Source: an uncultured bacterium
GTDB taxonomy: Bacteria > Chloroflexota > Dehalococcoidia > Dehalococcoidales > RBG-16-60-22
DNA length: 64,000 bases
Direction of reading: 5' to 3'
NCBI GenBank assembly: GCA_965369965.1
Contig: CBDUSH010000001.1
Coordinates: 20,269 to 84,268 of the forward strand
The notes beneath the pieces were generated by a model. It searched no databases. It worked only from the letters and a program-made list of their open reading frames with translations, and was not told the origin of the DNA. The position numbers and the translations under genes were made by a program. This document shows positions 14,682-54,860 of this stretch, piece after piece (position 1 is the stretch's first letter; each line of letters opens with the position of its first letter).

Positions 14682-14712
14682 AAAAAAAGAGAGGGGATTT
14701 TCACCCCTCTCT
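14682..14712 (-). terminator. intrinsic terminator downstream of rpsI
   Basis: On the minus strand, AGAGAGGGG-loop-CCCCTCTCT is followed by T7. It lies ~60 nt after the rpsI stop. Confidence 0.65.
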
Positions 14713-14768
14713 AATTATTCTTCCGTTATCGGGAATCTACCGGCGGTAGACCGGCCTCCCCCCAGACT

Positions 14769-15164: not shown

Positions 15165-15205
15165 TGAAACCCCCCTTAATTCTTCCCGTGTATCTTTCTT
15201 CCCGG

Positions 15206-16401: not shown

Positions 16402-16433
16402 GCTGAATCTTCCTTATCGCCCAACTCCCGGCG

Positions 16434-16787: not shown

Positions 16788-16792
16788 ATTAC

Positions 16793-17845: not shown

Positions 17846-17866
17846 TGGAATCCACCTCCTATTTCG

Positions 17867-18496
17867 TTATCGTGAGTAGTACTCAACGATGGTCTTGCCG
17901 TCAAATGTCGCTTCAATATCATCGGGTGTAGGCATGGACAAGAGTTGGCCGACCATGGTTGCCTTATCCAGGCTCAACCAGTCCATAATGGTCTTGGCTT
18001 CGATTGCCTGGGTAAGCACTTTATAGTATTCTAATTTGGCGCTCGCTTGGCGCCAACCGATGGTGTCGCCTTCTTTCACCAGGCAGGAAGGTATATCCGT
18101 CTTGTGTCCGTTGAGCAGGATATGCCCGTGGCGGACTATCTGGCGGGCCTGGGCGCGGGAATCGGCAAATCCCAGACGGAAAACGATATTGTCGAGGCGC
18201 CTCTCCAGCAGAACCAGCAGATTTTCACCGGTGATACCGGCTTGCCTTTCCGCCTCGGCAAAAATCCTCCGGAACTGTCGTTCGAGGATACCGTAACTGT
18301 GGCGTGCTTTCTGTTTTTCCCGGAGCTGCAGGGCGCGGTCGGAAAACTTGGGCCGCCGGCGGCTCAGCTGCTGTCCCGGTGGTTTCGGTCGCTTATCTAC
18401 GCTGCATTTGGGCGTGAAACAACGGTCACCCTTTAAAAAAAGTTTCCCGCCGGCGCGGCGACATAATCGGCAAACTGGTCCTGTATATCTAGCCAT
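17867..18496 (-). CDS. rpsD: 30S ribosomal protein S4
   Basis: The N-terminus is [26 protein letters not shown]. Confidence 0.95.
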
Positions 18497-18508
18497 GTCT
18501 CCTCTCTT

Positions 18509-18901
18509 CTACACTCGTCTCTTTTTCGGTGGCCGGCAGCCATTGTGCGGGATGGGTGTCACATCCCGGATGCCGGTAATATATAGGCCTGAACTCTGTA
18601 AAGAACGGATAGCTGCTTCACGTCCGCTGCCCGGACCCTTGACAAATACCTCAATCTGACGCAGGCCGTGCGCCATCGCCCGGCGGGCGGTATCGCGGGC
18701 CGCCATCTGGGCGGCATACGGTGTCCCCTTGCGCGAGCCCTTAAATCCGGCCGTCCCGGAGCTTCCCCAGGCAATGACATTACCCTGCGGGTCGGTCAAG
18801 GTCACTATGGTATTGTTAAAAGTAGACTGGACGTAGGCCTTCCCGACTGGAATAGACTTACGCTCCCGCCTCCTGACCTTAGTTCGTTTTTTCTGTGCCA
18901 T
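18509..18901 (-). CDS. rpsK: 30S ribosomal protein S11
   Basis: The C-terminus is ...[20 protein letters not shown]. Confidence 0.95.
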
Positions 18902-18918
18902 CCTGTTCTCCTTGCCTC

Positions 18919-19308
18919 TTATTTCTTGGTCATGCCGCGTCGCTGTCCTCTACCGGCCACGGTTCGGCGGGTGCCGCGTCGCGAACGGGCATTGGTTCGT
19001 GTTCGTTGCCCCTTGGAGGGTAGGTTATGGCGATGCCTGATACCCCGGTAGCTCCCGATTTCCACCAGGCGCTTCACGTTTAAGTTGACCTCTCTCCGCA
19101 AGTCCCCCTCAACCCGGTACTGCTTGTCAATGATCTCACGGAGGTGGTTAACCTCCTCTTCGGTCAGCTCGTTCACTTTGGTCTCCGGGCTGATTTCAGC
19201 TCGGGCTAAGATTTGCTGACTCAATACCGGGCCGATCCCGTAAATATACTGAAGTGAGACCCAGACCTGCTTATTTCGGGGTATATCTACACCGGCAATT
19301 CGCGCCAT
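18919..19308 (-). CDS. rpsM: 30S ribosomal protein S13
   Basis: The N-terminus is [15 protein letters not shown]. Confidence 0.95.
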
Positions 19309-27511: not shown

Positions 27512-28726
27512 TTATGCCTCTTTCTCGGTTGCCTCGGCGGCGGATTCATCCGAAGCCGCCTTTGCCTTGCTCCTGGTACTCGTTTTAGCCGGTTTCTCTT
27601 CTGCCTTAGCCTCTTCCGGTTTCGCGCTGGCGGCTGTCTTAACCCTCTTTTTAGCCGCCGGCTTGGCCGGTTTATCTTCTTCTTTTACTTCCGCGGCTGC
27701 TTCGGTTACCGGCTCTTCTGTCTTAGCCTCTTCCGGTTTCGTGCCGGCGGTCGCCTTGACTCTCTTTTTAGCCGCCGGCTTGGCCGGTTTATCTGCTTCT
27801 TTTACTTCTGCGGCTGCTTCGGTTACCGGCTCTTCTGTCTTAGCCTCTTCCGGTTCCGCGCTGGCGGTCGCCTTAACTCTCTTTTTAGCCGCCGGTTTGG
27901 CCGGTTCTTCCTCTTTTACTTCCGCCACCGGTGCCGCCGGTTCTTCCTCTTTTACTTCCACCACCGGTGCCACCGCCGCTTCGGTGGGTGGCTCCTCGGT
28001 CTTGGCGATCACCCTGACCTCTGCCGGGGCTCCGGCTTCGGTGGCTGCCGTACTGGCGGCCGGTTCTATCTCCGCTTCCTCCACTTCCACTGCCTTTGGT
28101 TCGGGAAGTATTTCACCCTTATATATCCATACCTTCACCCCGATACGCCCCAGCGTCGTCTTGGCTTCGGTAACCCCGTAATCAATATCCGCCCTCAAAG
28201 TGTGCAGTGGTACCTGTCCCTGATGCATAGTCTGACGGCGGGCTATTTCCGCGTCACCCAGCCTTCCGGAACAGCTGACTCTAATCCCTTTGGCGCCGGC
28301 CTGGAGGCTGCGGAAAATCGCCTGTTTGATTGCCCGGCGGTAGGCGATGCGCCGCTGTATCTGTTCGGCGATGGTTTTAGCCACCAGGGTGGCATCAAGC
28401 TCCGGTTGCCTTATCTCCCGGATGTTTAATCGGACTCTCTTCCCGATAAGTTTTTCCAGATATCGGCTCAGTTCATCCACTCTCTGTCCGCCCCGCCCGA
28501 TGACGATACCCGGTCGGGCGGTATGAATGGTCACCGACACCTCTTTTGCCTGGCGCTCAATTTCCACCAGGGAGATGGCGGCGTCGGAATATTTCGTCTG
28601 AATCGCATTACGGAGTTTCAGGTCTTCTTTCAGAAACTCGGCATAATGTGAATCGGCGTACCACCTCGCCTGCCAGTCTTGGATAACACCAAGTCTAAAC
28701 CCTATCGGATGAACCTTACGTCCCAA
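27512..28726 (-). CDS. rpsC: 30S ribosomal protein S3 with a ~190-aa repetitive A/E/K/P-rich C-terminal extension
   Basis: The N-terminal ~215 aa is canonical S3 ([26 protein letters not shown] domain). The ORF then continues in frame to 404 aa. Confidence 0.93.
27586..27972. repeat. in-frame tandem repeats inside the rpsC 3' extension (117-bp unit x ~2.7, then 36-bp unit x 2)
   Basis: CTTAGCCTCTTCCGG recurs at 27605, 27722 and 27839 (period 117). CCGGTTCTTCCTCTTTTACTTCC recurs at 27901 and 27937 (period 36). Confidence 0.9.
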
Positions 28727-35421: not shown

Positions 35422-36216
35422 CTATGACCCGGCGAGTATTTCCCGCAGCCCTTTCCCTTGCAGCTGACTCCACTGGTAGAGGACGGCCAGGTCAAAACCG
35501 ATGCAGAAATGACTGACTCCCATATCGACGAATTCTTTGGCGCCTTCGAAGCTGTTCAGTTCCACCCGGGGGTGGACTCCCTTTTTCAGCGCCTTCTCTA
35601 TCATGTCCCGCTCCACCCGCATGATTTCGGGGCTTCTCATTCCGCCCGCCTTGCTGACGCTCAGGGAGTAATCGCAGGGGCCGAACTGGAGCATGTCCAC
35701 ACCCTCGACCTCCATTATCTCGTCAAGCTGCTCCATGGCGGAGGCTTTTTCTATCAGTATCGTAATCACGGTTTCCCGCTGGGCTTCGACCCATGCCTGG
35801 CTGCCCACATCCACGAAATAGCCGGCGCTGCGCCTCACCGCGCAGCCGTGGCTGCCGCCGTCCTCCGGCGTCGCCGGTCGTACCGCCCGGATGCATTCCC
35901 TGACCTCATCCGCGGAATAGCAGTCGCTGAATATCAGGTTCTGTATGCCGGCGCCCAGTGACCGGGAAGTGATGAATATCCTCGGTTCCTGCTCTACCTT
36001 CATCATCGACGACATTTGCGGAAAAAGCTCCACCGCCCGGGCGAAGTTTTCCAGGTCACTCAATCCCCAGGCGGCGTATTCCCCGCTCAGTTCGATATAG
36101 TCGAAAGCGCCGGAAAGGCCGATCACTTCCACTATCTGCGGCGAAACGGACACCATGCGGGTGCCCAGAGTCGGCTTGCCGGCGTTGAGCATCTCTCTTA
36201 ATACGTTCTTTTTCAT
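35422..36216 (-). CDS. HpcH/HpaI-family (class II, pyruvate-forming) aldolase
   Basis: 264 aa. The N-terminal pattern L.EML.AGKPTLGT....SPQIVEVIGLSGFDYI is typical of 2-keto-3-deoxy/4-hydroxy-2-oxoacid aldolases. Confidence 0.7.
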   Translation of the reverse strand: MKKNVLREMLNAGKPTLGTRMVSVSPQIVEVIGLSGAFDYIELSGEYAAWGLSDLENFARAVELFPQMSSMMKVEQEPRIFITSRSLGAGIQNLIFSDCYSADEVRECIRAVRPATPEDGGSHGCAVRRSAGYFVDVGSQAWVEAQRETVITILIEKASAMEQLDEIMEVEGVDMLQFGPCDYSLSVSKAGGMRSPEIMRVERDMIEKALKKGVHPRVELNSFEGAKEFVDMGVSHFCIGFDLAVLYQWSQLQGKGLREILAGS

Positions 36217-36230
36217 TCGGTTGCCTCCTT

Positions 36231-37130
36231 TTACCCGGTATTTACGGGTGCTGTCTTTATTTGATATTTTTGGCCTCTCGCCTGGGCGTAGATTTCGGTC
36301 GCTCGAAACGAGCTTCTGACCAGCGGCGCCGAGGTGACGCCTTTAAACCCCATGTTTTTCCCCGCTTCCCGGTATTCGGCGAACTCCTCCGGGGGAATGA
36401 ACTTTACTACCGGGTGGTGCTTTGCCGAGGGCTGCAGGTACTGTCCGATAGTCAGCAGGTCGCACCCGGCGGCCCGCAGGTCGCGCATCACCGCCCGCAC
36501 CTCCTCCCCGCTTTCCCCCAGCCCCAGCATCAGGCCGGATTTGGTCACGATTTCCGGGTCGAACCCCTTCACTCTTGACAGCAGTTCCAGGGAACGCCGG
36601 TAATCCGCCTCCGGCCTTACCTCCGGGTAGAGGCGGGGCACCGTTTCAATATTATGGTTGATGACTTCGGGACGGGCTTTTGCCACTGTCTCCAGCGCTT
36701 CCGCCGAGCCGAGGAAGTCCGGTATGAGCACCTCGACGATGACCCCCGGGCGGTGGTCGTGCAATAGCCGGATTATGCGGGCGAAATGTCCGGCGCCGCC
36801 GTCGGGCAGGTCATCCCGGGTCACCGAAGTGATGACCACGTAGCTTAGTCCCAGTCTTTCGACTGCTTCCAGCAGGCGTTGCGGTTCCTCCCCGTCCGGC
36901 AGGTCGGGGCATCCCTTGGGCACCGCGCAGAACGTGCAGTGCCGGCTGCACACCTCGCCCAGGATGAGGAAGGTGGCCGTGCCCGCCGTGAAACACCCGC
37001 CGATGTTCGGGCAGTGGGCGCTCTCGCAGATGGTGCCCAGCTTTAATCCGCCGAGCAGGTGTTCCATGTCGGACATAACCTGCGGGTCGGCCGGGCGTTG
37101 CTTAAACCATGGCGGCAGTCTTCCGCTCAT
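36231..37130 (-). CDS. lipA: lipoyl synthase
   Basis: It has the auxiliary-cluster motif CESAHCPNIGGC and the radical-SAM motif CSRHCTFC. Confidence 0.93.
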   Translation of the reverse strand: MSGRLPPWFKQRPADPQVMSDMEHLLGGLKLGTICESAHCPNIGGCFTAGTATFLILGEVCSRHCTFCAVPKGCPDLPDGEEPQRLLEAVERLGLSYVVITSVTRDDLPDGGAGHFARIIRLLHDHRPGVIVEVLIPDFLGSAEALETVAKARPEVINHNIETVPRLYPEVRPEADYRRSLELLSRVKGFDPEIVTKSGLMLGLGESGEEVRAVMRDLRAAGCDLLTIGQYLQPSAKHHPVVKFIPPEEFAEYREAGKNMGFKGVTSAPLVRSSFRATEIYAQARGQKYQIKTAPVNTG

Positions 37131-37977
37131 CGCCTTCCTTTAACGGTATAGGTGTTTTCGTCGCTATCTCAATTCGAAATATTTCGGCAAAATGGGAGAG
37201 CAGTCTTTCGGTCACCGTTGTCATGTCTGTTTCCCGTCCCAGCTTTCGGGAGATAGAGGTTGCCGTCCGGTCGGTAAAGCCGCAGGGATAAATCAGCGAA
37301 AAATGCTCCAGATTTGTGTTTACGTTCAAGGCAAAGCCGTGCATCGTTATCCACTTCTTCAGCCGGAGTCCGATAGCGGCGATTTCCTGATTATCCACCC
37401 AGACACCGGGGTGGTTTTTATCCCTGCCCGACTCTATGGAAAAGTCTTTCAGGGTTCTGATGATGGCTTCTTCCAGGTTGCGGATATAACGGTGGATGTC
37501 TTTTCCCCACCCCCGCAGGTCGAATATAGGGTAGCCCACCAGTTGCCCCGGGCCGTGATAGGTCACATCCCCGCCCCGGTCGATAAAGACCAGCGAGACC
37601 CCTTTTCGGGCCAACTCTTCCGGTGAAGCCAGGATATTTTCCAGTTTACCGGACTTGCCCACCGTTATCGTCGGCGGGTGTTCCAGCAGCAGCAGCGTAT
37701 CCGGTATCCGTCCTTCCGCCCTCTCTTCGAGCAACTGCCTCTGTAGACGGTAGGCGTCCCGGTAACTGATTTGACCCGCCCGGTAGACGGCGCACCGCCG
37801 CCGAACCTCTTCGCTTGCCTGACTCAAAGGTTTTATATTCACATCCCCTTCGCTTGGCCGACTCAAAACCCCTTCACTTGCCTGACTCAAAGGTTTTGTA
37901 TGCACATCCCCTTCACTTGCCTGACTCAAAGGTTTTGTATGCACATCCCCTTCACTTGCCTGACTCAAAGGTTTCAT
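37102..37977 (-). CDS. lipB: octanoyltransferase LipB with a repetitive ~60-aa N-terminal extension
   Basis: It has the core motif RGGDVTYHGPGQLVGYPI. The ATG overlaps the lpdA stop (ATGA). Confidence 0.88.
   Translation of the reverse strand: MKPLSQASEGDVHTKPLSQASEGDVHTKPLSQASEGVLSRPSEGDVNIKPLSQASEEVRRRCAVYRAGQISYRDAYRLQRQLLEERAEGRIPDTLLLLEHPPTITVGKSGKLENILASPEELARKGVSLVFIDRGGDVTYHGPGQLVGYPIFDLRGWGKDIHRYIRNLEEAIIRTLKDFSIESGRDKNHPGVWVDNQEIAAIGLRLKKWITMHGFALNVNTNLEHFSLIYPCGFTDRTATSISRKLGRETDMTTVTERLLSHFAEIFRIEIATKTPIPLKEGDERKTAAMV
37809..37977. repeat. 39-bp in-frame tandem repeat (~4.3 copies) at the 5' end of lipB
   Basis: Units start at 37809, 37848 (shortened), 37872, 37911 and 37950. 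Units 37872-37910 and 37911-37949 are identical. The encoded repeat is KPLSQASEGDVHT. Confidence 0.9.
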
Positions 37978-39380
37978 TTCTTTGACGGCGGGAAATGTAT
38001 CGTTTCGCCAGTCACGTCCAGCGCCGCCTCCCGGAATGCCTCGGAAAGGCTGGGGTGGGAGTGTATCGTGGCGATGATTTCCTGCGGCGTCACGTCCAGT
38101 TTCATCGCCAGGGCGGCTTCGGCGATTAGTTCGGTGGCTTGCGGCCCGACGATGTGCACGCCCAGTATCTGGCCGTATTTCTGGTCGGTGACTATCTTTA
38201 CCAGTCCCCGCCGCTCCCCTTTGATGATGGCCATACCGTTGGCGGCAAAGGGAAATTTCCCGGTCTGCACCTGGTATTCCCGGGCTCTGGCGTCCGCCTC
38301 GGTAAGCCCCACGCCGGCCAGTTCCGGCAGGGTGAAAACGCAGCGCGGCACTGCCTGGTAATCGATTGCGGTATCTTTGCCCAGGGCGTTCTCTGCGGCC
38401 ACGACACCTTCTTCCATGGCGACGTAGGCCAGCATCATACCGCCCACGGCGTCACCGGCGGCGTAGATATTGGGTACACTGGTCGCCATGCTGTCGTTCA
38501 CCTTGATGGCGCCTTTCTCCACGGCTACTCCGGCTTCTTCCAGCCCCAGACCGTCCAGGTTGGGACGGTAACCCACCCCGATGGCGACCACCTCTGCCAC
38601 CAGTTTCTTCTCCCCCTCTCCGGTAACCACGGTGACCGCTTTGCCCCCCGCCGTGTCCTCGATGGCGCTCACTTTGGCGCCCTCGTATATTTCCACTCCG
38701 TCCTCTTTCAGGGCTTTACTCACCACTGCGGTCAATTCCACGTCTTCCAGGGGCAGGATATGGGGCAGCATTTCCACGATAGTCACCTTGCTGCCCAGCT
38801 TGGCCAGGATAGTGGCCATCTCCACGCCGATAACCCCGCCCCCTATCATCAGCAGGCTCTCCGGGACCCGTTCCAGGTCGAGCACGCTCTCGGCGCCGAT
38901 TACGCCGCGGGGACTGTCCGCCCCCGGAATCGGCAGTGTTATCGGCCGGGCGCCGGTGGCGATGATTATCTTCTGCGCCGTGAGAACCTGTTTCTGCCCC
39001 TGCCCGTCGGTTATCTCCACCTGCATTGACGCCAGCAGCCGGGCGCGTCCGTTGATAACTTCAACCCCGTTTACCTTCAGCAGGCCCTGGACGCCGGAAA
39101 CCAGCGTCGAAATAACGGTGCTCTTGCGCGCCATCATTTTAGCCAGGTCGATACTGACACCGGTAGTGGTTATGCCGTATTCCCCGGCGTTCTTGATTGA
39201 CTCGTAAAGTTCCACACTGTGCAGTAGCGTCTTCGAAGGGATGCACCCGTGATTCAGACAGGTCCCTCCAAGTTTGTCCTCTTCGATGAGGGTAACCTTG
39301 CCGCCCAGTTGGGCGGCCCTTATCGCGGCGACGTATCCCGCCGGACCGCCGCCGATGATGATCAGTTCTCGTGCCTCCAC
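37974..39380 (-). CDS. lpdA: dihydrolipoyl dehydrogenase (E3)
   Basis: It has the FAD motif GGGPAGY, the redox disulfide GGTCLNHGCIPSK and the C-terminal HSHPSLSE. Confidence 0.95.
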   Translation of the reverse strand: MEARELIIIGGGPAGYVAAIRAAQLGGKVTLIEEDKLGGTCLNHGCIPSKTLLHSVELYESIKNAGEYGITTTGVSIDLAKMMARKSTVISTLVSGVQGLLKVNGVEVINGRARLLASMQVEITDGQGQKQVLTAQKIIIATGARPITLPIPGADSPRGVIGAESVLDLERVPESLLMIGGGVIGVEMATILAKLGSKVTIVEMLPHILPLEDVELTAVVSKALKEDGVEIYEGAKVSAIEDTAGGKAVTVVTGEGEKKLVAEVVAIGVGYRPNLDGLGLEEAGVAVEKGAIKVNDSMATSVPNIYAAGDAVGGMMLAYVAMEEGVVAAENALGKDTAIDYQAVPRCVFTLPELAGVGLTEADARAREYQVQTGKFPFAANGMAIIKGERRGLVKIVTDQKYGQILGVHIVGPQATELIAEAALAMKLDVTPQEIIATIHSHPSLSEAFREAALDVTGETIHFPPSKK

Positions 39381-39394
39381 GGTGTACCTCCCTG

Positions 39395-40630
39395 TTATGC
39401 GCTGATTAGCAGCCGGTATGGGTTTTCCAGCAGCTTGATGACGCCGGCCATGAACCCGGCGGCCACCGCTCCGTCGATTACTCTGTGGTCATAGGTAAAA
39501 TAGTAGGTCATTATCGGCCGGATGACGATTTGCCCGTCCCTGACCACCGCCCGGTCGGTGATGGCGCCGGTGCCCAGGATGGCCGACTCCGGCTGGTTGA
39601 TGATTACCGTCTCGAAGCGGTATCCGGCGCCGACGGCGCCTAGGTTGCTCAGGGTGAAGGTGCCGCCGCCGATATCGCCCGGCTGCAGTTTACCCTCTCT
39701 CGCTTTGGAAGCCAGCGCCTTTACTGTCTGGCTGATTTCTTTCAGTGATTTCCGGTCGGCGGCGGAGACCACCGGGACAATCAGCCCCTCATCCAGGGCG
39801 ACGGCCACGCCGATATTGATGTCTTCCCAGATTTTAACTTCATTATCTATCAGGCTGGAATTGATCGCCGGGTGTTCTTTGAGCGCCCGGGCGACGGCTA
39901 TCACCAGTAAATCGGTGTAGGTAACGCGGGTGCCGAGGGTGCTTTCCTGCTCCACCAGGTCCTGGCGCATCCTGACCAGCTGGGTCATGTCTATCTCACC
40001 CATGGCGGTGAGCTGGGCGGAGGTTGCCAGGCTGCGCTGCATGTGCTCGGCGATGGCCCCGCGCATCCCCCTGAGGGGTACGGTGCTCTTGACTCTTTTC
40101 TCGCCGGGGGCGCCTGCCGGGGCGGCCGTCACCTTGGGTCCTCCTGCTTTACCGGCAATCGCTTTTTCAATGTCTTCCCGGGTAATTCTGCCTCCGGGCC
40201 CGGTGCCGGTTACCTGCGTCACGTCGATGACGTGCTCCTCGGCCATCTTCCGGGCGACCGGTGATATTTTGACTCTCTCCCCTTTTTCGCCTGCGCTCAC
40301 CGGTGGAGCGGCGGCTGCCTGGGGTGCGGCGGCGGCCTCGGCGGCGGTCGGTGCCGGTTCCGGTTGGGCGGTTTGCAGGGCGGCCAGTTCGTCTTGAGAT
40401 TCGGCGATGATGCCTACCGCCGAGCCAACCGCGGCCGTATCGTCGGCATTTTTGATGATGTGGACAAGGCCGGCAGCCGGTGACTCCACGTCATACCTCA
40501 GCTTTTCCGTTTCAATCACCACCACCACCTGCTTTTCCGCCACCTGTTCCCCTTCCTGAACCTTCCACTCGATAATGGTAGCGTCGGCTACCGCCATGCC
40601 TAAACGTGGTACTATAATATCTGTTGCCAT
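39395..40630 (-). CDS. dihydrolipoamide acyltransferase (E2)
   Basis: It has an N-terminal lipoyl domain (VVIETEKLRYDVESP), an Ala/Pro linker, a peripheral-subunit-binding domain and the catalytic motif YDHRVIDGA. Confidence 0.92.
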   Translation of the reverse strand: MATDIIVPRLGMAVADATIIEWKVQEGEQVAEKQVVVVIETEKLRYDVESPAAGLVHIIKNADDTAAVGSAVGIIAESQDELAALQTAQPEPAPTAAEAAAAPQAAAAPPVSAGEKGERVKISPVARKMAEEHVIDVTQVTGTGPGGRITREDIEKAIAGKAGGPKVTAAPAGAPGEKRVKSTVPLRGMRGAIAEHMQRSLATSAQLTAMGEIDMTQLVRMRQDLVEQESTLGTRVTYTDLLVIAVARALKEHPAINSSLIDNEVKIWEDINIGVAVALDEGLIVPVVSAADRKSLKEISQTVKALASKAREGKLQPGDIGGGTFTLSNLGAVGAGYRFETVIINQPESAILGTGAITDRAVVRDGQIVIRPIMTYYFTYDHRVIDGAVAAGFMAGVIKLLENPYRLLISA

Positions 40631-40645
40631 CTTTTCCTCCTGAGG

Positions 40646-41635
40646 CTAGTTTCTAAAAAAACCCTGGCTCACGGCCGCCCGTATCGTCCCTTCGATGTCG
40701 ACCACGCGGGGGCCGTCTGCTTGCAGTCTTATCTCCACCCGGTCGGTGGCGGCTACCGTAATCTCTCTCTCTCCGTCCAGCGCGATTACCGACGGCTTGC
40801 AGAGTACCGTAACCTCTTCTCCCGGTTCTAAAATCTTCATTTCGGCCACCTCCACCTCGGCCACCAGTCCCGGCAGTACGGCTGCCTTTACTTTTATATC
40901 GCCGCTTCCCAGCCGGAGGTACATACCCTGCCGGTCGCCGGGTGCCACCGGGTGCAGGTTGCCCCCGATGCAGGTCATCCCGATGTTATTCGGCTCGGCC
41001 CGGGTGCAGACGATCTGCCTGACCTCGGCCAGCTTCCAGATTGCCCGTGAACCGGTGAAAAGCTGGTCTAGAACGACGACATCGACCAGTGCCATGTCGA
41101 TTTCAGCACCGTTCTTGATGACCACCAGTCTTTTATGAATACTTATTGTCTCTTGTCCGTTCAGGAATTTTTGGGCGATGATCCCGGCGGCGATTCCCGC
41201 CGAGGTGGATTCGGTCATCACCGGGAAAACGTTGTTGGTGCCGGTGGATATCGGCACCAGAGGTACGTCCTGCTTTCCCTTGGCCACGTCCCGGTTGGTG
41301 CCGTCTCCGCCCAGGGTGACGATGCAGCCCGCCCCCAGCTCGCCCATCATCTCGGCCGCCTTGAGGCTGTCTTTAGACGTGTAGTCCATAACCATGTCCA
41401 GTACGGAGATTTTCGCCCGGACATTCTCGGTCAGCATCCCGTCCAGGGCTCTCTGTCCGAGGCTGTAATAGTCCGGCATGATAAGTATCTCGTCGACGCC
41501 GGTGGAATCGATACCGGTGATTATCCTTCTCATCAGGTTGGTTTTTTCGGTATTATCGGTCACGCTGGCATAAGCTACCAGCCGCCGGATGTCTTTTCCG
41601 GAGGCGGGATTGGCGATAATGCCCACTATGCTCAC
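40646..41635 (-). CDS. ATP-NAD kinase/diacylglycerol-kinase-fold protein, AcoX-like
   Basis: It has the GGDGT motif (VTLGGDGTNRD) and is 329 aa. Its position inside an aco-type E1/E2 cluster parallels acoX of Cupriavidus necator acoXABC. Confidence 0.65.
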   Translation of the reverse strand: MSIVGIIANPASGKDIRRLVAYASVTDNTEKTNLMRRIITGIDSTGVDEILIMPDYYSLGQRALDGMLTENVRAKISVLDMVMDYTSKDSLKAAEMMGELGAGCIVTLGGDGTNRDVAKGKQDVPLVPISTGTNNVFPVMTESTSAGIAAGIIAQKFLNGQETISIHKRLVVIKNGAEIDMALVDVVVLDQLFTGSRAIWKLAEVRQIVCTRAEPNNIGMTCIGGNLHPVAPGDRQGMYLRLGSGDIKVKAAVLPGLVAEVEVAEMKILEPGEEVTVLCKPSVIALDGEREITVAATDRVEIRLQADGPRVVDIEGTIRAAVSQGFFRN

Positions 41636-42622
41636 TTAATCAGCCCTGTCTAACTCGGCGCGGTTAACGCAATTGGGCATCGGCTCGCCTTTCAGACCGG
41701 CAATCAGGTTCTCTGCTCCCAGTACGCTCATGTCGGTTCCTGTCTGCCAGGTTCGCGCCCCGATGTGTGGAGTAATTATCAGGTTGTCCAGGGAGAACAG
41801 CGGATCATCCTTCGAAATAGGCTCTTCTCTGGTGACGTCTATCGCCGCGCCCCGTATCCGTTTATTTTTCAAGGCTTCGTACAGCGCGTCCTGGTCCACC
41901 ACTTTCCCCCGTGAGGTGTTGACCAGCACTGCCGTTGGTTTCATGCAGGCCAGTTCCCTGGCGCCGATGAGGTGCTGCGTGTCGCTTTTCATCGGCACGT
42001 TGATGCTAACAAAGTCGCACCGGCCGAGCAGGGTTGGTATGTCCCCGACGTATTCTGCGCCCAGTTCTTCCTCGTCCTCTCTCCGGTTCCGGTTGTAGTA
42101 AAGTACCTTCATATCGAAACCGCGGGCACGTCTGGCCACGGCAGCGCCGATGCGCCCCATGCCGATAATGCCCAGCGTCTTGTGGTGGACGTCGAGGCCG
42201 GTCAGCGCCATCGGGCCCCACATTTTCCATTCCCCCCGCGCCGTCAGGTCGACCATTTCCACTATCCTCCGGGCGAAGGCGAGCATGATTGTAAAAGCCA
42301 GGTCGGCGGTGCTTTCGGTGACCGCCCCCGGGGTATTACTGACCTTGATGCCCCGTTTGGTCGCCGCCTTGGTGTCGATGTTGTCGTAGCCCACGCTCAC
42401 GTTGGCGATCACCTTCAGCTTCGGGGCGGCGTCCATCACCTCACCGTCTATCGTATCGTCGCCCCAGAGCAGCAACCCGTCCGCGTCGGCCAGGTGGCGG
42501 ATAAGCTCTTCACGGGGGATGGTATCCTCCTCCGGCCACACTTCATAATCAGCGTATCGGCCGATGATGTCGAGCGCCTCTTGCGCCATCGTTCTGGTGA
42601 TGTATACTTTTGGTTTCGGCAT
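41636..42622 (-). CDS. D-isomer-specific 2-hydroxyacid dehydrogenase (glyoxylate/hydroxypyruvate reductase-like)
   Basis: It has the NAD-binding motif GIIGMGRIGAAVARRA and catalytic R/E/H blocks (NTSRG, TPHIG). Confidence 0.88.
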   Translation of the reverse strand: MPKPKVYITRTMAQEALDIIGRYADYEVWPEEDTIPREELIRHLADADGLLLWGDDTIDGEVMDAAPKLKVIANVSVGYDNIDTKAATKRGIKVSNTPGAVTESTADLAFTIMLAFARRIVEMVDLTARGEWKMWGPMALTGLDVHHKTLGIIGMGRIGAAVARRARGFDMKVLYYNRNRREDEEELGAEYVGDIPTLLGRCDFVSINVPMKSDTQHLIGARELACMKPTAVLVNTSRGKVVDQDALYEALKNKRIRGAAIDVTREEPISKDDPLFSLDNLIITPHIGARTWQTGTDMSVLGAENLIAGLKGEPMPNCVNRAELDRAD

Positions 42623-42667
42623 TTGATATCTCCGGTAATCAGTCTCTTTATGAAATGTCGTCTCCGG

Positions 42668-43237
42668 CTACCGGCCGGCAAAATAAACGTTTTTCCCCGA
42701 TACCGACAGCGGGATGCCGATTGCCAGGTCGGCGTCCATCAGTTTCATCCGGCGGGCAGCGGCGCCTATCGAGTACATCATGCGGTTGTCCACGTTAAAG
42801 TCACTGGCCGTCTTCACCGCCGAAGCCAGGGCGATGCCCAGATCCATCGACTGGAAATGGCACATCGGGCCGCTGGCGTCACCGCCGTCTATCTTTTTCG
42901 CTTTCAGTATTGCCTGGCAGTTATGGCCGCAGGCGCCGCAGTCGAGAGGTATCTCCGCCTTTTTAGGCTCGCCGGTAACGCCGATAATCAGCACTGCCGC
43001 TGACTGCCGGACGTCGTCGGCGTTCCTCTTAAAAAAGGCCAGCCTCTCCGGGTCGTCCTCATATCTTTTTTCCATGGCCCGGGCCAGCGCTTCCAGTTCG
43101 TCGGCGCCGTGTAAAATAAGCGTCTTTGTCGAATCCAGCCCCCTCGTTTTGGGGGAGGTGCGGCTGCTCACCGCCATCAACCGGGCGGCATCCAGTATCC
43201 CTTCTCTTTCCGCCTCATCCGAGCTTATTCGTGCCAT
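42668..43237 (-). CDS. ferredoxin-like-domain protein (resembles COG4739/DUF2148 family)
   Basis: 189 aa with the Cys cluster CGACGHNC plus a distal Cys. The family assignment is from memory of the DUF2148 pattern and is not verified. Confidence 0.4.
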   Translation of the reverse strand: MARISSDEAEREGILDAARLMAVSSRTSPKTRGLDSTKTLILHGADELEALARAMEKRYEDDPERLAFFKRNADDVRQSAAVLIIGVTGEPKKAEIPLDCGACGHNCQAILKAKKIDGGDASGPMCHFQSMDLGIALASAVKTASDFNVDNRMMYSIGAAARRMKLMDADLAIGIPLSVSGKNVYFAGR

Positions 43238-43291
43238 GAATCGTCTCCTCCCTGCGGTTGAACTGCCTTTCTGTGTCGATATCCGGCAGCT

Positions 43292-44272
43292 CTAGCCGCT
43301 TATCGCGTCTATCGCCGCGATAAGCTGGTTTTCGTCGGGCATCCAGAAATCCTCCAGGACTACACCGTAGGGGACCGGGGTATCGGGCGCGTTGACCCTC
43401 TTTATCGGCGCGTCCAGGTAGTCGAAGGCCTCATCGGCGCAAATGGCGGCCACATGCCCGGCGAAGCTCCCCGTCACGTGTTCCTCGGTGAAGAGTATCA
43501 GCCGGCCGGTCTTTTTGACCGAATCCAGGACTGTCTGCTTGTCAAAGGGCACTATCGTCCGCGGGTCGATCACTTCCAGGCTGATACCGCGTTCCTGCTG
43601 CATTTTCTCGGCCACGTTCAGCGCCTTGCTTACCATGTAGGCGGTCGCCACCACGGTGATATCGGTGCCTTCCCGCTTGATTTCAGCCACCCCGAAAGGT
43701 ATCGTGTAATCCTCGTCCGGCACCATGCCTTTCGGGCTGGTCCACATCAGCATCTTGTGCTCGAAAAACATCACCGGGTTATCGTCCCGGATGGCCGTTT
43801 TCAGCAGACCCTTGGCATCGCAGGGATTTGAAGGCAGTACGATTTTCAGCCCCGGCATGCACATCATCATCCCCTCCAGGCTCTGGGAATGCTGGGCGGC
43901 TGTCCGCCGGCCGGCCCCGCTGAGAGCCGTCATCACCAGGGGCACCGAAATCTTGCCCCCGAACATGTAGCGCATTTTGGTCATCCCGTTCATTATCTCG
44001 TCCCAGGCCACTCCCAGGAAGTCACAGAACCTCATCTGCGGGATGGGTCTCATCCCGGTTATTGCCGAACCGATAGCGGCCCCCAGGATGGCTGCTTCGG
44101 AGAGTGGTGTGTCCCGTACCCGGCCCGGGTACTTCTCGTACAAACCCCCGATTTCGCCCATCAGGCCGCCCATTTTGCCCACATCCTCTCCCAGGATGTA
44201 CACCCTCTCGTCCCGCTCCATTTCCTCGGCCATCGCCTCGCCGACTGCTTGGCGAAAGTTTATCTCTCTCAT
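43292..44272 (-). CDS. 2-oxoacid/acetoin dehydrogenase E1 component beta subunit
   Basis: 326 aa with a transketolase-like pyrimidine-binding domain (ILGEDVG..GG....T.GL...PGRVRDTPLSEAA). Confidence 0.92.
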   Translation of the reverse strand: MREINFRQAVGEAMAEEMERDERVYILGEDVGKMGGLMGEIGGLYEKYPGRVRDTPLSEAAILGAAIGSAITGMRPIPQMRFCDFLGVAWDEIMNGMTKMRYMFGGKISVPLVMTALSGAGRRTAAQHSQSLEGMMMCMPGLKIVLPSNPCDAKGLLKTAIRDDNPVMFFEHKMLMWTSPKGMVPDEDYTIPFGVAEIKREGTDITVVATAYMVSKALNVAEKMQQERGISLEVIDPRTIVPFDKQTVLDSVKKTGRLILFTEEHVTGSFAGHVAAICADEAFDYLDAPIKRVNAPDTPVPYGVVLEDFWMPDENQLIAAIDAISG

Positions 44273-44281
44273 TTTCCCCTC

Positions 44282-45241
44282 CTAGGCATATACGTTGTCC
44301 AGCGTTTCTTCCGGGTTCGGGAAAGGACTCTCCAGGGCGAACTTCACCGCTTCGTCCATTTCCGCCAGCGCCGCCTCGTCAATATCTTTGGCCTGCCCTT
44401 CGGTCAGCACCTTCATTTCCAGGAGTTTTTCCTGGAAGAGCTTTATCGGGTCCCGTTTCAGCCAGGCGTCAATTTCCTCCTGGGGCCGGTAAGTCCCGGA
44501 ATCTCCTTCGAAGTGACCGTGGTAGCGGTAGGTTTTAGCCTCGATCAAAGTCGGTCCCCCGCCGCTCTTGGCTCTGGCCACCGCCTCTCCCATCACCTCG
44601 TGTACCGCCATCACGTCCTGTCCGTCCACCACCACCCCGGGAATCCCGTAGCCCACCGCCCGGTCGGCAATGTCGTGTATTGCCAGGGAACAGGTCGTCG
44701 GCACCGATACCGCCCAAAGGTTATTTTCACAGACGAAAATTACCGGCAGGCACCAGACCGCCGCCAGGTTGATGCCTTCGTGGAATCTCCCGATGTTGGA
44801 GGCGCCGTCGCCGAAGAAGACGACGGTTATCTGGTCGGTGCCTCTCATTACCGCGGAAAGACCGGCTCCGGTGGCCACCGGTATTCCTGACCCCACGATA
44901 CCCGCCGCCCCCAGCATGCCGATGTCCAGGTCGGCGATGTGCATCGAGCCGCCCTTGCCCAGGCAGTAGCCGGTTTTTTTAGCGAAAAGCTCCGCCATTG
45001 CCCTCTTCGGATCACCGCCCTTGGCAAGCAGGTGCCCGTGTCCGCGGTGGTTACTGACAATGTAGTCCTCCGTCCTCAGGTGCGCCAGCGCTCCGGAGGC
45101 AATCGCCTCCTCCCCGATGTAGAGGTGGACGCTGCCGGGGATGTTTCCCGCCTTGAATTCGGTGGAAACTCTTTCTTCGAAACGGCGGATACGGACCATG
45201 GTGCGGAACATGCTGATTAACTTCTCTTTTTCTATTGCCAT
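44282..45241 (-). CDS. thiamine-diphosphate-dependent E1 component alpha subunit, AcoA-like
   Basis: It has the ThDP motif GDGASNIG...ENNLWA, plus HRGHGH and GKGGSMHIAD, which are typical of acetoin-dehydrogenase-type E1 alpha. Confidence 0.9.
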   Translation of the reverse strand: MAIEKEKLISMFRTMVRIRRFEERVSTEFKAGNIPGSVHLYIGEEAIASGALAHLRTEDYIVSNHRGHGHLLAKGGDPKRAMAELFAKKTGYCLGKGGSMHIADLDIGMLGAAGIVGSGIPVATGAGLSAVMRGTDQITVVFFGDGASNIGRFHEGINLAAVWCLPVIFVCENNLWAVSVPTTCSLAIHDIADRAVGYGIPGVVVDGQDVMAVHEVMGEAVARAKSGGGPTLIEAKTYRYHGHFEGDSGTYRPQEEIDAWLKRDPIKLFQEKLLEMKVLTEGQAKDIDEAALAEMDEAVKFALESPFPNPEETLDNVYA

Positions 45242-45324
45242 TCTGTTTTCCTCTCCCGTCCTGGTAATATTGCTCCGGGTGCCGCGGAGGGCGGCAGCTG
45301 TTCTGGTATGCCTCCGCCGGCCTT

Positions 45325-45747
45325 CTAGACTGATCTTTTCGCCAGGTCTTCAAGCATGATATCAGCGGCTTCTATGGCCGACATGCCATCCTTAATCCCC
45401 AGTTTTTTCGCCAGCTCATTGATTGCGGATACTTTGCCCTGCTCGTAGGTGCTGGTGCCGTTGCCGATTTTGGCCGACATGGAGGACACGGCCACCGCCG
45501 GGATATCCCACTTGTCCAACCCCTTCATTCCGGCGATTCCGGCATCGTTCTTGCCGATACCGGCGTCATTGCTGACCATCCCTTTTATCTTCAGGTTAGC
45601 CATGTACTCGCAGGCGTTGACACCACCGTGCGAACCGGTGATGATGATATCCATATTGTTGTCCTGTTTAACTTCGGAACTGGTATCCATGACTACGATT
45701 CGGGCTTTTCCCATTTCCTTGACGACTTTTCGTTTGTCTTCCGGCAT
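45325..45747 (-). CDS. conserved hypothetical protein, paralog 2 (GSHGG / NDAG motif family, unrecognised)
   Basis: 140 aa. A gap-free hand alignment gives ~50% identity to the upstream ORF. I recognise no family. Confidence 0.7.
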   Translation of the reverse strand: MPEDKRKVVKEMGKARIVVMDTSSEVKQDNNMDIIITGSHGGVNACEYMANLKIKGMVSNDAGIGKNDAGIAGMKGLDKWDIPAVAVSSMSAKIGNGTSTYEQGKVSAINELAKKLGIKDGMSAIEAADIMLEDLAKRSV

Positions 45748-45791
45748 CTGCTTGTCACCTCTTTCTTAAATCCAGGCCGTTGTTATTTTAC

Positions 45792-46199
45792 TCAACCGTT
45801 CTCAAACATCCGGTCGGCGGCATCCCTGGCGGGTATCCCTTCCTTGATGCCCAGTTTCCGGGCCGCCTCGTTGGCTGCTGAAATTACACCACTGTAATAG
45901 GTGTCCACCCCGACGCCGATTTCAGCCGACATGCTGGATACCGCCGCCGCCGGGATACCCTGTTCGTCCATCAGTTTCAGGGCGGCGATTCCGGCGTCCT
46001 CAAGTCCCCCGCCGGCGTCATTGCCGATCATTCCCTTTACCCCGGATTCAATCATCATCTCTCCCACGTTGATGCCGCAGTGGGAACCGTCCACCATCAC
46101 GTCACCCCGGTTCTCTTCGGTCAGTGACGTCGCCGAATCGGCAATCACTATCCGGGATTTTTCTGATGCTCTCACTATTTTGTGTATCTCGTGAATCAA
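45792..46199 (-). CDS. conserved hypothetical protein, paralog 1 (GSHCG / NDAG motif family, unrecognised)
   Basis: 135 aa. The TTG start is preceded by a GGGGGGA Shine-Dalgarno-like run. It is the first gene of the operon. Confidence 0.7.
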   Translation of the reverse strand: MIHEIHKIVRASEKSRIVIADSATSLTEENRGDVMVDGSHCGINVGEMMIESGVKGMIGNDAGGGLEDAGIAALKLMDEQGIPAAAVSSMSAEIGVGVDTYYSGVISAANEAARKLGIKEGIPARDAADRMFENG

Positions 46200-46238: not shown

Positions 46239-46270
46239 ATTATACTACTTTATTGGTGTGACCGGTTCAA
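46239..46270 (-). promoter_or_regulatory. possible promoter of the dehydrogenase operon
   Basis: On the minus strand: TATAAT (46244-46239) with TTGAAC (46270-46265) 20 nt upstream. The spacer is longer than optimal. The -35-like hexamer lies inside repeat copy 1. Confidence 0.3.
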
Positions 46271-46400
46271 AACTTTAGAATCCGGCTATCCCCGCCCGGT
46301 GACCGGCTCAAAACTTTGGAATCAGGCTATCCCCGCCCGGTGACCGGTTCAAAACTTTGGAATCAGGCCATCCCCGCCCCGTGTCCGGCTTAAAAGTAAG
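46258..46400. repeat. 41-bp tandem direct repeat, 3 full copies plus a degenerate fourth
   Basis: Copies lie at 46258-46298, 46299-46339 and 46340-46380, differing by 2-4 nt from one another. A partial copy starts at 46381. Each copy contains the dyad TTCAAAACTTTGGAA. Confidence 0.9.
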
Positions 46401-46499: not shown

Positions 46500-46532
46500 A
46501 AAAAGAGTTGCCGCTTGCCGGCAACTCTTTTT
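46500..46532. terminator. bidirectional intrinsic terminator (serves the phosphotriesterase-homolog gene on the minus strand)
   Basis: AAAAA-GAGTTGCCG-CTTGC-CGGCAACTC-TTTTT: a 9-bp GC-rich stem flanked by A5 and T5. Confidence 0.7.
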
Positions 46533-53687: not shown

Positions 53688-54860
53688 ATGAACGGAAAGC
53701 GTCATAAGACGCACAGACTGATATCAATCACCATGTTATTGCTGGTGGCGGCATTGGCGCTGGGAAGTGTTCTGGCCGGCTGTGCGGAACCTACCCCGGC
53801 TCCAGCGCCCGCTCCCGCACCAGCGCCCGCCCCTGCCCCGGCTCCGGTTCCGGCTCCCGCCCCCGCTCCGGCGCCCGCGCCCGCTCCGGCACCGGCTCCC
53901 GCTCCCGCCCCGGAAGAGCCTGAAGAAAAGCCTACCATCAAATTTGCCGATACCCAGTTTGAATCCCTCTGGATTAACAACGCCATCGCCAAATTTGTCA
54001 TCGAGGAAGGCTACGGCTACCCGGTGGAGACCATCGAGATGACCACCCCCATCTTCCAGGTAACCCTCGCCAAGGGTGAAATCCACGTGATGATGGAGTT
54101 ATGGTCGCAAAACCTTCTCGACTGGTATAACGAGGAAACCGCCGCCGGGAACATTGAGGACCTGGGTATGACCTATGAAGGCGGTCCCCAGTTCTTCATT
54201 ATTCCCCAGTGGATGCACGAGGAATACGGTATCAACACTATCTTCGACATGAAAGACCACTGGGAGCTCTTCCAAGACCCGGAAGACCCGGATAAGGGCG
54301 CGTTCATCAACTGCGTCATCGGCTGGCAGTGCGCCGAAATCAACGAAGTGAAGCTGGAAGCGTACGGCCTGACCGAATACTACAACATCATCTCGCCGGG
54401 CAGCTCCGGAGCCCTGGACGCCGGTCTGTCCGGTCCGCAGAAGAAGGGCAAACCCGTATTCGGCTATCACTGGTCGCCCACCGCCATCATGGGGGCCTAT
54501 GACTGGTACATCCTGGAAGAGCCGGAATATGACGCCGCCATCTGGGATGAAATCACCGCTGCCCGTGAGGACAAGAGCCTCAGGCCCCTCTCTGAAGCTA
54601 CCGCCTACGAGACAATACCCACCAACAAGGGCATCCACCCCAGCCTCCGTGAGATTGCCCCGGACGTCGTCGCCATGCTCGAGAAAATGAACGTCAGCGT
54701 GCAGCCCATCAACGTCACCGCTGCTTGGGCTTCGGAAACCGATGTTCAGGACTGGGAGTTGGCCGCCATCTACTACCTGGAGAACTACGAAGATCTCTGG
54801 TCCACCTGGGTCACTGACGAGGCCTACGCCGGGATAAAAGACGCCTTGGCGGCACAATAG
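53688..54860 (+). CDS. proX: glycine betaine ABC transporter substrate-binding lipoprotein with a long (Pro-Ala)n tether
   Basis: It has a signal peptide with the lipobox LAGC, then ~40 aa of PA repeats, then a ProX-type binding domain. It is the third gene of the proVWX cluster. Confidence 0.85.
   Translation: MNGKRHKTHRLISITMLLLVAALALGSVLAGCAEPTPAPAPAPAPAPAPAPAPVPAPAPAPAPAPAPAPAPAPAPEEPEEKPTIKFADTQFESLWINNAIAKFVIEEGYGYPVETIEMTTPIFQVTLAKGEIHVMMELWSQNLLDWYNEETAAGNIEDLGMTYEGGPQFFIIPQWMHEEYGINTIFDMKDHWELFQDPEDPDKGAFINCVIGWQCAEINEVKLEAYGLTEYYNIISPGSSGALDAGLSGPQKKGKPVFGYHWSPTAIMGAYDWYILEEPEYDAAIWDEITAAREDKSLRPLSEATAYETIPTNKGIHPSLREIAPDVVAMLEKMNVSVQPINVTAAWASETDVQDWELAAIYYLENYEDLWSTWVTDEAYAGIKDALAAQ
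53794..53914. repeat. hexanucleotide (GCNCCN) low-complexity repeat encoding (AP)n
   Basis: The encoded sequence is PAPAPAPAPAPAPAPAPVPAPAPAPAPAPAPAPAPAPAP. Confidence 0.9.

Follow-up and report, generated by a model that had tools for sequence, protein, structure and literature searches.

Twelve consecutive, co-directional open reading frames (ORFs) occupy positions 35422–46199, on the minus strand, of a 64-kb stretch of DNA from an uncultured Dehalococcoidales bacterium (the whole stretch is called here the window, and all positions are given in its numbering unless a contig is named). They were delimited from the ORF listing and translation and are discussed here as a candidate operon for an Aco-type lipoamide complex. 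Read from the 5′ end, they encode two small paralogs related to DUF1805, the E1α and E1β subunits of a thiamine-diphosphate-dependent dehydrogenase, a DUF2148 protein, a D-2-hydroxyacid dehydrogenase, an AcoX homologue, the E2 and E3 components, LipB, LipA and a divergent HpcH/HpaI-family protein (Table 1). The first nine genes are separated by 44, 83, 9, 54, 45, 0, 15 and 14 nucleotides (nt); the genes for E3 and LipB overlap by 4 nt, those for LipB and LipA by 29 nt, and 14 nt separate lipA from the HpcH-like gene. A preliminary description of this locus had listed twelve minus-strand genes over the same interval, with gaps of at most 83 nt and some overlaps, flanked by an upstream terminator and repeat array and by a downstream rpsL promoter; every ORF and boundary feature was found, the computed distances agree, and the family assignments of the twelve genes were upheld by Pfam and NCBIfam. 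Identical or near-identical proteins are encoded on contigs of Dehalococcoidales metagenome-assembled genomes (MAGs), and the same gene order was found in independent assemblies (L001, L002, L030, L032, L034, L035, and L039; 64–99% protein identity). Since this order recurs in independent assemblies, the arrangement is not a product of chance.

Table 1. Coordinates of the operon genes and of the features that bound the operon (aa, amino acids).
Feature	Position	Strand	Remarks
DUF1805-like paralog A	45792-46199	-	135 aa, TTG start; lineage-variable accessory gene
DUF1805-like paralog B	45325-45747	-	140 aa
E1α, AcoA-type thiamine-diphosphate subunit (predicted)	44282-45241	-	PF00676
E1β	43292-44272	-	Pfam, NCBIfam
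DUF2148 protein	42668-43237	-	conserved-core gene; nitroreductase-like fold and cysteine site
D-2-hydroxyacid dehydrogenase	41636-42622	-	glyoxylate/hydroxypyruvate reductase-like; lineage-variable insertion
AcoX homologue	40646-41635	-	NAD-kinase/DAG-kinase fold, GGDGT motif; conserved core
E2 dihydrolipoamide acyltransferase	39395-40630	-	lipoyl, E3-binding and catalytic domains; DHRVIDG
E3 dihydrolipoyl dehydrogenase	37974-39380	-	TIGR01350
LipB octanoyltransferase	37102-37977	-	TIGR00214
LipA lipoyl synthase	36231-37130	-	TIGR00510
Divergent HpcH/HpaI-family protein	35422-36216	-	lineage-variable terminal gene
Terminator-like hairpin with T-run	46500-46530 (stem 46525-46510)	-	ends the upstream PTE-family gene; 5′ operon boundary
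41-nt tandem array, 3.4 copies	46258-46395		immediately upstream of the operon promoter region
Perfect TATAAT −10 hexamer	46239-46244	-	39 nt upstream of the TTG start; GGGGGG ribosome-binding site follows
rpsL-rpsG-fusA promoter-like site, TTGACA-18-TATACT	35343-35314	-	near-consensus; 3′ cluster boundary

Classification of the E1 subunits

The E1α subunit scored 357.3 bits on TIGR03182 (PDH_E1_alph_y), the equivalog model for pyruvate dehydrogenase (PDH), which is below the cut-off of 393.85, and 258.6 bits on TIGR03181, again below the cut-off (411.35), while E1β reached 319 bits against an NCBIfam cut-off of 321. A ladder of identities was built by tblastn against annotated plasmids, in which the window E1α was 47–52% identical to E1α encoded within recognisable aco operons, 38–41% to genes annotated as pdhA, ~30% to Gram-positive pdhA and ~27% to bkd, the genes of the branched-chain 2-oxoacid dehydrogenase (BKD); in the reference alignment the corresponding values were 38.6% for the Paracoccus housekeeping PdhA, 29% for Gram-positive PdhA and 28% for BkdA. 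The aco references are recognisable as such by acoX, by a gene for 2,3-butanediol dehydrogenase or acetoin reductase, or by a sigma-54 regulator of the AcoR type, and came from Paracoccus denitrificans (acoX-E1α-E1β-AcoC with 2,3-butanediol dehydrogenase and a sigma-54 regulator), Paraburkholderia (acoX-E1α-E1β-AcoC with a lipoate ligase), Acinetobacter (lipA-E1α-E1β-E2-E3 with acetoin reductase and butanediol dehydrogenase) and Enterococcus (a sigma-54 regulator with E3-E1α-E1β-E2). The Paracoccus housekeeping PDH, which carries a lipoyl domain on E1β, the Enterococcus pdhA and one bkd operon served as non-aco references.

A bootstrapped neighbour-joining tree places the window E1α in a Dehalococcoidia clade (100% bootstrap); this clade falls outside the PDH-like group and has the Aco clade as its sister (68% bootstrap). 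Thirty alignment positions are diagnostic, in that all four Aco references have one residue there that none of the PDH-like references has; the window protein carries the Aco residue at 20 of them and a PDH residue at 3. The motifs THRGHGH, GSMHIAD, and GHFEGD, whose PDH counterparts are YRDHGH, GSMHMF, and GHSMSD, are common to the window protein and bona fide AcoA only, among the references compared. The identities, the tree, the diagnostic positions and the motifs agree, and the proposal of the preliminary description that the complex is of the Aco type, and as such presumably distinct from a housekeeping PDH or BKD, is supported by them; HRGHGH and GSMHIAD in E1α, as well as the GGDGT motif which it had pointed out in the AcoX-like protein, are all present, and neither the tree nor the identities place E1α squarely among the housekeeping PDH proteins.

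One may still ask whether the complex could be a housekeeping dehydrogenase of pyruvate or another 2-oxoacid, with LipB and LipA as the only lipoylation genes of the cell and with the HpcH-like protein and the 2-hydroxyacid dehydrogenase supplying the 2-oxoacids. The E1α score of 357 bits on PDH_E1_alph_y would fit, as would the E1β score of 319 against 321, yet E1α stays under the PDH equivalog cut-off and shares 38.6% of its residues with a true PdhA as compared with 47–52% with AcoA. The nearest solved structures are PDH E1α chains (human PDHA1, 203 bits; no solved AcoA structure was among the structure-search matches), but the three motifs, which lie close to the active site, agree with AcoA and with none of the PDH-like references. 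The core-genome site of the cluster, constant across lineages and flanked by a PTE-family gene and the str operon, and a housekeeping neighbourhood with neither an aco regulator nor a butanediol dehydrogenase, also speak for this explanation; against them stands the acoX gene conserved inside the operon. Canonical HpcH-family aldolases release pyruvate, which would suit the supply of a PDH, but neither the HpcH-like gene nor that of the 2-hydroxyacid dehydrogenase is conserved in the operon. Taken together, a housekeeping role is regarded as unlikely.

Other E1 operons were noted on the plasmids. Those of Priestia (L020 4321–11749) and Clostridioides difficile (L025 5010–10930) encode E1α-E1β-E2-E3 related to the Aco clade and are linked to a glucitol/sorbitol phosphotransferase system (PTS) or to sugar-binding regulators; their E1α keeps THRGH and has GHSKSD in place of GHFEGD, so that they may represent a subgroup of their own, associated with sugars. 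Plasmids of Leisingera (L023 3247–8384) and Desulfotalea (L024 4169–10498) carry clusters of acetate-CoA ligase, E1α/E1β, E2 and acyl carrier protein, without E3, in which E1α is annotated as pdhA yet forms a clade of its own; E1α and E1β are fused in one protein in the Leisingera cluster, and the Desulfotalea cluster adds a lipoate-protein ligase.

E2, E3, AcoX, and the lipoylation genes

The E2 protein contains the Biotin_lipoyl, E3_binding and 2-oxoacid_dh domains of Pfam, and matches the acetoin-dehydrogenase-type model NF011457 only over the lipoyl domain (residues 2–164). E3 was assigned by TIGR01350 (552 bits, cut-off 409). LipB (TIGR00214, 174.6 bits, cut-off 83.55) and LipA (TIGR00510, 355.4 bits, cut-off 310.25) both exceed the curated NCBIfam cut-offs, so the claim that the operon has its own lipoylation genes stands. 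The GGDGT protein, which had been called AcoX-like, is a full-length AcoX homologue: it aligns over 97–100% of its length with proteins annotated as acetoin catabolism protein X (34–38% identity, E = 1e-43 to 1e-51), the genes of which adjoin acoA. A search of solved structures with the AcoX homologue returned noise only, and in 2022 AcoX was still termed a protein of unknown function (PMC10107126).

The 5′ end of the lipB ORF, ~55 codons, consists of a 39-nt in-frame tandem repeat at the E3/lipB junction (37804–37974), the unit of which encodes 13 aa, KPLSQASEGDVHT. The window has one perfect copy more than the near-identical contigs L001 and L002, and the repeat is wholly missing in the relatives L032 and L034. 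Because the copy number differs and these relatives lack it, this is a repeat variable at strain level, and the true start of LipB may lie downstream of it.

The DUF2148 protein

The protein encoded between E1β and the 2-hydroxyacid dehydrogenase belongs to DUF2148 (PF09918, 101.9 bits, gathering threshold 25). Its AlphaFold2 model (pLDDT 89) has its best Foldseek matches among FMN-dependent nitroreductases (E = 5e-5, TM ~0.57), and four cysteines (C100, C103, C107, and C126), invariant across 53 DUF2148 homologues, presumably bind a [4Fe-4S] cluster. A sequence search of solved structures gave no match and a literature search on DUF2148 found nothing. Homologues of at least 66% identity are Dehalococcoidia proteins, and the two contexts that were examined at 71–100% identity lie within the operon. 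Since homologues of 59% identity or less sit in unrelated contexts, the link between DUF2148 and the complex is shown only within the Dehalococcoidales clade. The protein may act as a small redox partner, e.g., an electron donor to LipA, a radical-SAM enzyme, or an acceptor for E1.

Comparison with known aco and PDH clusters

The closest counterpart is found in an anaerobe, Pelobacter (Syntrophotalea) carbinolicus, where acoX, acoA, acoB, acoC, acoS, acoL, Pcar_0348 and lipB (PMC3543383; Oppermann and Steinbuchel, 1994, cited there) lie within a cluster of 28 genes (PMC3543383). The acoS product is a lipoate synthase, as the preliminary description had correctly stated, and together with lipB it forms the only lipoate route of that cell, while acoX is typical of aco clusters and its function is unknown (PMC3543383). 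All eight functions of the conserved core of the window operon (see below) are thus present in the P. carbinolicus aco cluster, co-directionally, with an E2 annotated as dihydrolipoamide acetyltransferase. It had been stated that the ferredoxin-like protein, i.e., DUF2148, is part of no described complex of this type, which is inaccurate at the level of gene clusters, since Pcar_0348 is a protein with a ferredoxin/nitroreductase domain; the two were matched by description and modelled fold, not by sequence. The clusters differ in gene order. Thiamine-biosynthesis genes, budX, AcoR and acyl-CoA enzymes are found in P. carbinolicus and not in the window, whereas the DUF1805-like pair, the glyoxylate-reductase-like dehydrogenase and the divergent HpcH-like gene are found in the window and not in the P. 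carbinolicus cluster.

The proteobacterial acoXABC type, known from Cupriavidus necator and Pseudomonas putida, was examined in plasmids of Paracoccus denitrificans and Paraburkholderia phenoliruptrix. As in the window, AcoX, E1α and E1β are encoded together, although there AcoX precedes E1α; E1α is 49–50% identical and has THRGHGH, GSMHIAD, and GHFEGD in common with the window protein, and AcoX is 35–36% identical over its full length. However, AcoC is an E2 of the "acetoin dehydrogenase" type, whereas the window E2 has the classical 2-oxoacid_dh catalytic domain, and the acoXABC operons lack E3, LipA and LipB, are regulated by sigma-54/AcoR and adjoin a butanediol dehydrogenase; the last gene of the Paraburkholderia operon belongs to the lipoate-protein ligase family. 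The Acinetobacter cluster resembles the window operon in that it encodes a classical E2, an E3 and a lipoyl synthase of its own, which shares 50% identity with the window LipA, and its E1α is 47% identical to that of the window, but it lacks AcoX, LipB, DUF2148 and the pair, and has dedicated diol dehydrogenases. PDH with a heterotetrameric E1 (alpha-proteobacterial and mitochondrial, TIGR03182) has the same E1αβ-E2-E3 architecture and chemistry, but PDH operons contain no AcoX. The window operon is a known kind of gene cluster, which here includes extra genes that vary between relatives. The literature on acetoin in Dehalococcoidia yielded a passing mention only.

Conserved core and variable genes in Dehalococcoidia

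Gene neighbourhoods of homologues within Dehalococcoidia fall into four arrangements, termed here variants A–D. Variant A, found in marine relatives (71–77% identity), has the order PTE, a 73-aa apparent DUF1805-like remnant, E1α, E1β, DUF2148, AcoX, E2, E3, LipB, LipA and rpsL, and a variant A relative has neither the 2-hydroxyacid dehydrogenase nor the HpcH gene. Variant B consists of an M42 peptidase, PTE, the DUF1805-like pair, the same eight-gene core and the HpcH-like gene, again without the 2-hydroxyacid dehydrogenase. Variant C, to which the window, L001/L002, L032, L034, and L039 belong, is variant B with the 2-hydroxyacid dehydrogenase placed between DUF2148 and AcoX. Because these variants and variant D (described below) were compared, the conserved unit can be defined as the eight-gene core of E1α, E1β, DUF2148, AcoX, E2, E3, LipB and LipA. 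Its synteny holds in L013/L014, L030/L031, L032, L034, L035, and L039 at 64–95% identity, and it occupies a fixed position, with a PTE-family gene on one side and the rpsL (str) operon on the other, while the 2-hydroxyacid dehydrogenase is missing in L013, L030, and L035. The occurrence of the pair, of the 2-hydroxyacid dehydrogenase and of the HpcH-like protein differs between lineages, which makes them add-ons and not constitutive parts of the complex; the genes of the latter two are late insertions. Of the self-contained twelve-gene module that was proposed initially, the eight-gene core is therefore what withstood comparison across genomes, being conserved and syntenic, whereas the four accessory genes vary between lineages.

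Variant D was found in at least nine assemblies (L004, L007, L010, L033, L036, L038, L041, L043, and L047; in L007 at ~3,700–19,300) and has a different composition: a TRAP transporter (DctPQM), the pair, a zinc-dependent alcohol dehydrogenase (Zn-ADH), two or three short-chain dehydrogenases/reductases (SDRs), E1α-E1β at 78–81% identity to the window subunits, a split transketolase and a HIBADH-like protein. These loci also encode a protein with a PCC domain, a canonical aldolase of the HpaI type and a 2-hydroxyacid dehydrogenase; within 10 kb there is no gene for E2 or E3 and no lip gene. The pair thus tracks E1αβ and not E2 or E3. In NCBIfam scans, the Zn-ADH of variant D fell below the threonine-dehydrogenase cut-off and its SDRs matched generic models, which did not settle the substrate.

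This context opens another explanation, namely that E1αβ cleaves a larger compound, of the hydroxyketone or ketose type, that stems from a polyol or sugar acid and is imported by a TRAP transporter, with the pair as an E1 subunit or helper, so that acetoin would not be the physiological substrate. In its favor, the pair and E1αβ occur together in the TRAP/Zn-ADH/SDR/transketolase loci, where the Zn-ADH is threonine/inosose-dehydrogenase-like, and the pair lies beside E1αβ in every Dehalococcoidia contig that is long enough. However, canonical butanediol/acetoin clusters also contain a Zn-ADH and an SDR, and the pair is reduced to the 73-aa remnant in a lineage that kept the whole core, which implies that it is dispensable for the complex. 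Firmicute relatives of E1α do occur in sorbitol-PTS or sugar-regulator contexts, but these sugar-linked proteins lack GHFEGD, which the window protein and bona fide AcoA possess. A larger hydroxyketone as the substrate of the window complex is therefore considered quite improbable.

Proposed function

We propose that the operon encodes an Aco-type lipoamide complex together with its lipoylating machinery, as a vertically inherited core, with acetoin or a close acyloin as the likely substrate; to this interpretation, which draws on sequence comparison, a probability of roughly 0.62 is assigned. The chemistry of E1, E2, E3, LipB and LipA follows from established knowledge of their families. The thiamine diphosphate of E1α/E1β would attack the carbonyl of a short α-hydroxyketone, most likely acetoin or a close analogue and less likely a 2-oxoacid, and E1 would then release an aldehyde (or CO2) and reductively acylate the lipoyl arm of E2. 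The acyl group would be handed by E2 to coenzyme A (CoA), and the dihydrolipoamide would be reoxidised by E3 with NAD+. LipB would move an octanoyl group from acyl carrier protein to the E2 lipoyl domain, into which LipA would insert two sulfur atoms. AcoX and DUF2148, the latter with its predicted Fe-S site and nitroreductase fold, would act as conserved accessory factors, and the pair, the glyoxylate-reductase-like dehydrogenase and the HpcH-like protein as catabolic add-ons.

Several points weigh against this proposal. The sister position of the Dehalococcoidia E1α to the Aco clade has a bootstrap of only 68% in a tree with few reference sequences. Neither a butanediol/acetoin dehydrogenase nor an AcoR/sigma-54 regulator was found in the operon or in the 64-kb window, and no aldehyde dehydrogenase in the operon. 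The housekeeping neighbourhood beside ribosomal operons would also suit a role in central metabolism, and the context of variant D indicates that the substrate there may be a different hydroxyketone. Co-transcription of the twelve genes is inferred from gene spacing only, and acetoin or a close acyloin from the E1 signature and the presence of AcoX only; we agree with the preliminary description that the substrate cannot be deduced from the sequence.

The machinery itself is standard and current knowledge is not overturned by it. Under the proposal, uncultured Dehalococcoidales of marine and subsurface habitats would nevertheless have a concrete, testable route by which small hydroxyketones or diols are converted to acetyl-CoA; the carbon metabolism of this group is known mostly from genome inference. 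Moreover, AcoX and a protein of the Fe-S/nitroreductase-fold kind recur with aco genes in two anaerobic phyla, which sharpens the old question of what the role of AcoX and of its companions is. The recurrent, unexplained accessory proteins are the most interesting aspect of the operon.

The DUF1805-like paralog pair

The first two genes had been described as paralogs of unknown function, and their products do share 49% identity (E = 2e-42). Both match PF08827 (DUF1805, YunC-like) at 20.5 and 20.7 bits, below the threshold of 29.5; fused relatives score 30–31 bits, and many relatives carry a precomputed PF08827 match. An AlphaFold2 model of paralog B reached pLDDT 91, and no solved structure matches the pair, either by sequence search or by model. 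The literature on DUF1805 holds incidental mentions only, without functional information. A profile search of 1.84 billion representative proteins returned 1,272 DUF1805-like relatives (~1,270 clusters at 50% identity), and most of the best profile matches are proteins of ~270–290 aa that match the profile twice, so the usual form appears to be one fused two-domain protein. Because of this, the window paralogs A and B probably form a heterodimer.

The pair adjoins E1αβ on every sufficiently long Dehalococcoidia contig. In the marine relative L013 a 73-aa ORF between PTE and E1α (2024–2245) matches the C-terminal part of DUF1805 and appears to be a decayed remnant of the pair. In Bacteroidales, at 35–38 loci (e.g., L072 6352–9669, L090 7015–10381, and L096 6888–10381), a fused protein of ~280 aa is encoded directly after an IorA-like gene (domains POR_N, TPP_enzyme_C, and Fer4) and an IorB-like gene (POR). 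In Crenarchaeota archaeon SCGC AAA471-B05 (L051 6876–10849) a DUF1805-like domain fused to a PCC domain (PF03479) is encoded divergently beside E1α-E1β-E2; a stand-alone PCC protein is present in the variant-D loci of Dehalococcoidia. Other contexts are fused forms beside TRAP transporters in a Bacillus species and, in Actinobacteria, tandem pairs whose neighbours are Dak1/Dak2, an IlvD/Edd dehydratase and SDRs. The recurrent closeness of the family to thiamine-dependent oxidoreductases is suggestive, not exclusive. The initial statement that the pair is outside any described complex of this type thus remains valid, with the addition that it represents a widespread family with many other contexts.

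These three unrelated lineages (Dehalococcoidia with an AcoAB-type E1, the crenarchaeon with E1αβ-E2 and Bacteroidales with the IorAB type) raise a more far-reaching idea: thiamine-diphosphate-dependent 2-oxoacid/acyloin oxidoreductases may have in the DUF1805-like proteins an accessory factor that has so far been overlooked, and these proteins together with DUF2148 may define an anaerobe-specific acetoin-type complex. This is put forward as a speculation that is probably wrong in this broad form; if true, such a complex might have an added redox or cofactor-handling step. A small, widespread family is in any case flagged as a repeated neighbour of thiamine-dependent oxidoreductases.

The HpcH-like protein and the 2-hydroxyacid dehydrogenase

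The product of the last gene contains the HpcH Pfam domain (43.8 bits, cut-off 25) and remains far below the cut-offs of all NCBIfam equivalogs (78 vs. 369 bits). In an alignment with E. coli HpaI, Ser/Cys, Tyr and Lys replace the catalytic Asp42, His45 and Arg70, but both metal ligands, E156 and D182, are retained; the canonical HpaI-type paralogue of the variant-D loci keeps DTEH and VRVP. Homologues of 64–70% identity occur in unrelated contexts, with TRAP transporters or a nitroreductase, and one of them shares a MAG with a variant-D locus. In another Chloroflexota MAG (L114 10001–11467) a homologue of 64% identity lies beside a PF00881 nitroreductase and a DUF1786 protein. Because the catalytic residues are replaced and homologues are found elsewhere, the earlier idea that an aldolase feeds the complex is weak.

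The 2-hydroxyacid dehydrogenase matches both of its Pfam domains strongly and scores 375 bits on NF009714 (cut-off 455); its best solved relatives are archaeal glyoxylate reductases (~300 bits). The HpcH and 2-hydroxyacid dehydrogenase proteins of variant-D loci were considered as orthologues of the window proteins and rejected, with identities of 26–38% and different active-site motifs.

Could the pair, the 2-hydroxyacid dehydrogenase and the HpcH-like gene then stand beside the complex by chance, with no functional link? Their presence varies among close relatives, as chance would have it, but the spacing of 0–83 nt and the shared orientation suggest co-transcription. The HpcH-like homologues at 64–70% identity elsewhere point the same way as this variation, while the 2-hydroxyacid dehydrogenase gene interrupts the core and directly abuts acoX (0 nt). 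As for the pair, the many contexts of its family, e.g., with Dak1/Dak2 and an IlvD-type dehydratase in Actinobacteria or with TRAP in Bacillus, would be compatible with chance, but its linkage to E1αβ is seen in two Dehalococcoidia arrangements and again beside the crenarchaeal E1αβ-E2. Fortuitous juxtaposition of these four genes is accordingly judged rather unlikely.

Operon boundaries, repeats, and other features of the window

The TATAAT hexamer upstream of the operon was read by eye from the sequence and was not listed by a consensus promoter scan, and the spacing between a −35-like TTGAAC and this box, 20 nt, is non-canonical; it is likely the operon promoter. No Rfam match at E ≤ 1 was obtained upstream of or inside the operon, where a riboswitch or structured leader, e.g., of the thiamine pyrophosphate (TPP) type, was looked for. 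The 41-nt array, likewise without an Rfam match, folds no better than shuffled sequence (z = +1.8), thus without a stable RNA fold. It is missing in L032 and L034 and specific to the strain lineage; because these relatives lack the repeats, their interpretation as a conserved operator was ruled out. The core TTTGAGYC is common to the 41-nt and 39-nt repeats, and the window contains 7 matches to this pattern as against 0.14 expected.

The remaining window is of housekeeping character and includes the S10-spc-alpha ribosomal operons, SecY, RpoA, MetRS, FtsH, SAM synthetase, AdoHcy hydrolase, RtcB and a glycine-betaine ABC transporter. Ribosomal protein S3 (27512–28726) has a C-terminal extension of ~190 aa, rich in Ala, Glu, Lys, and Pro and made of 117-nt repeats (2.8 copies). 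A GC-rich short-period repeat (6/18/24 nt) at 53794–53913, near the 5′ end of the gene for an OpuAC-type substrate-binding protein (53688–54860), is likely to code for a linker rich in Pro, Ala and Gly. The left end of the window (990–7904) contains two multicopper-oxidase-like ORFs next to each other, together with genes for an FMN reductase, a SnoaL-like protein and a molybdopterin oxidoreductase of 817 aa.

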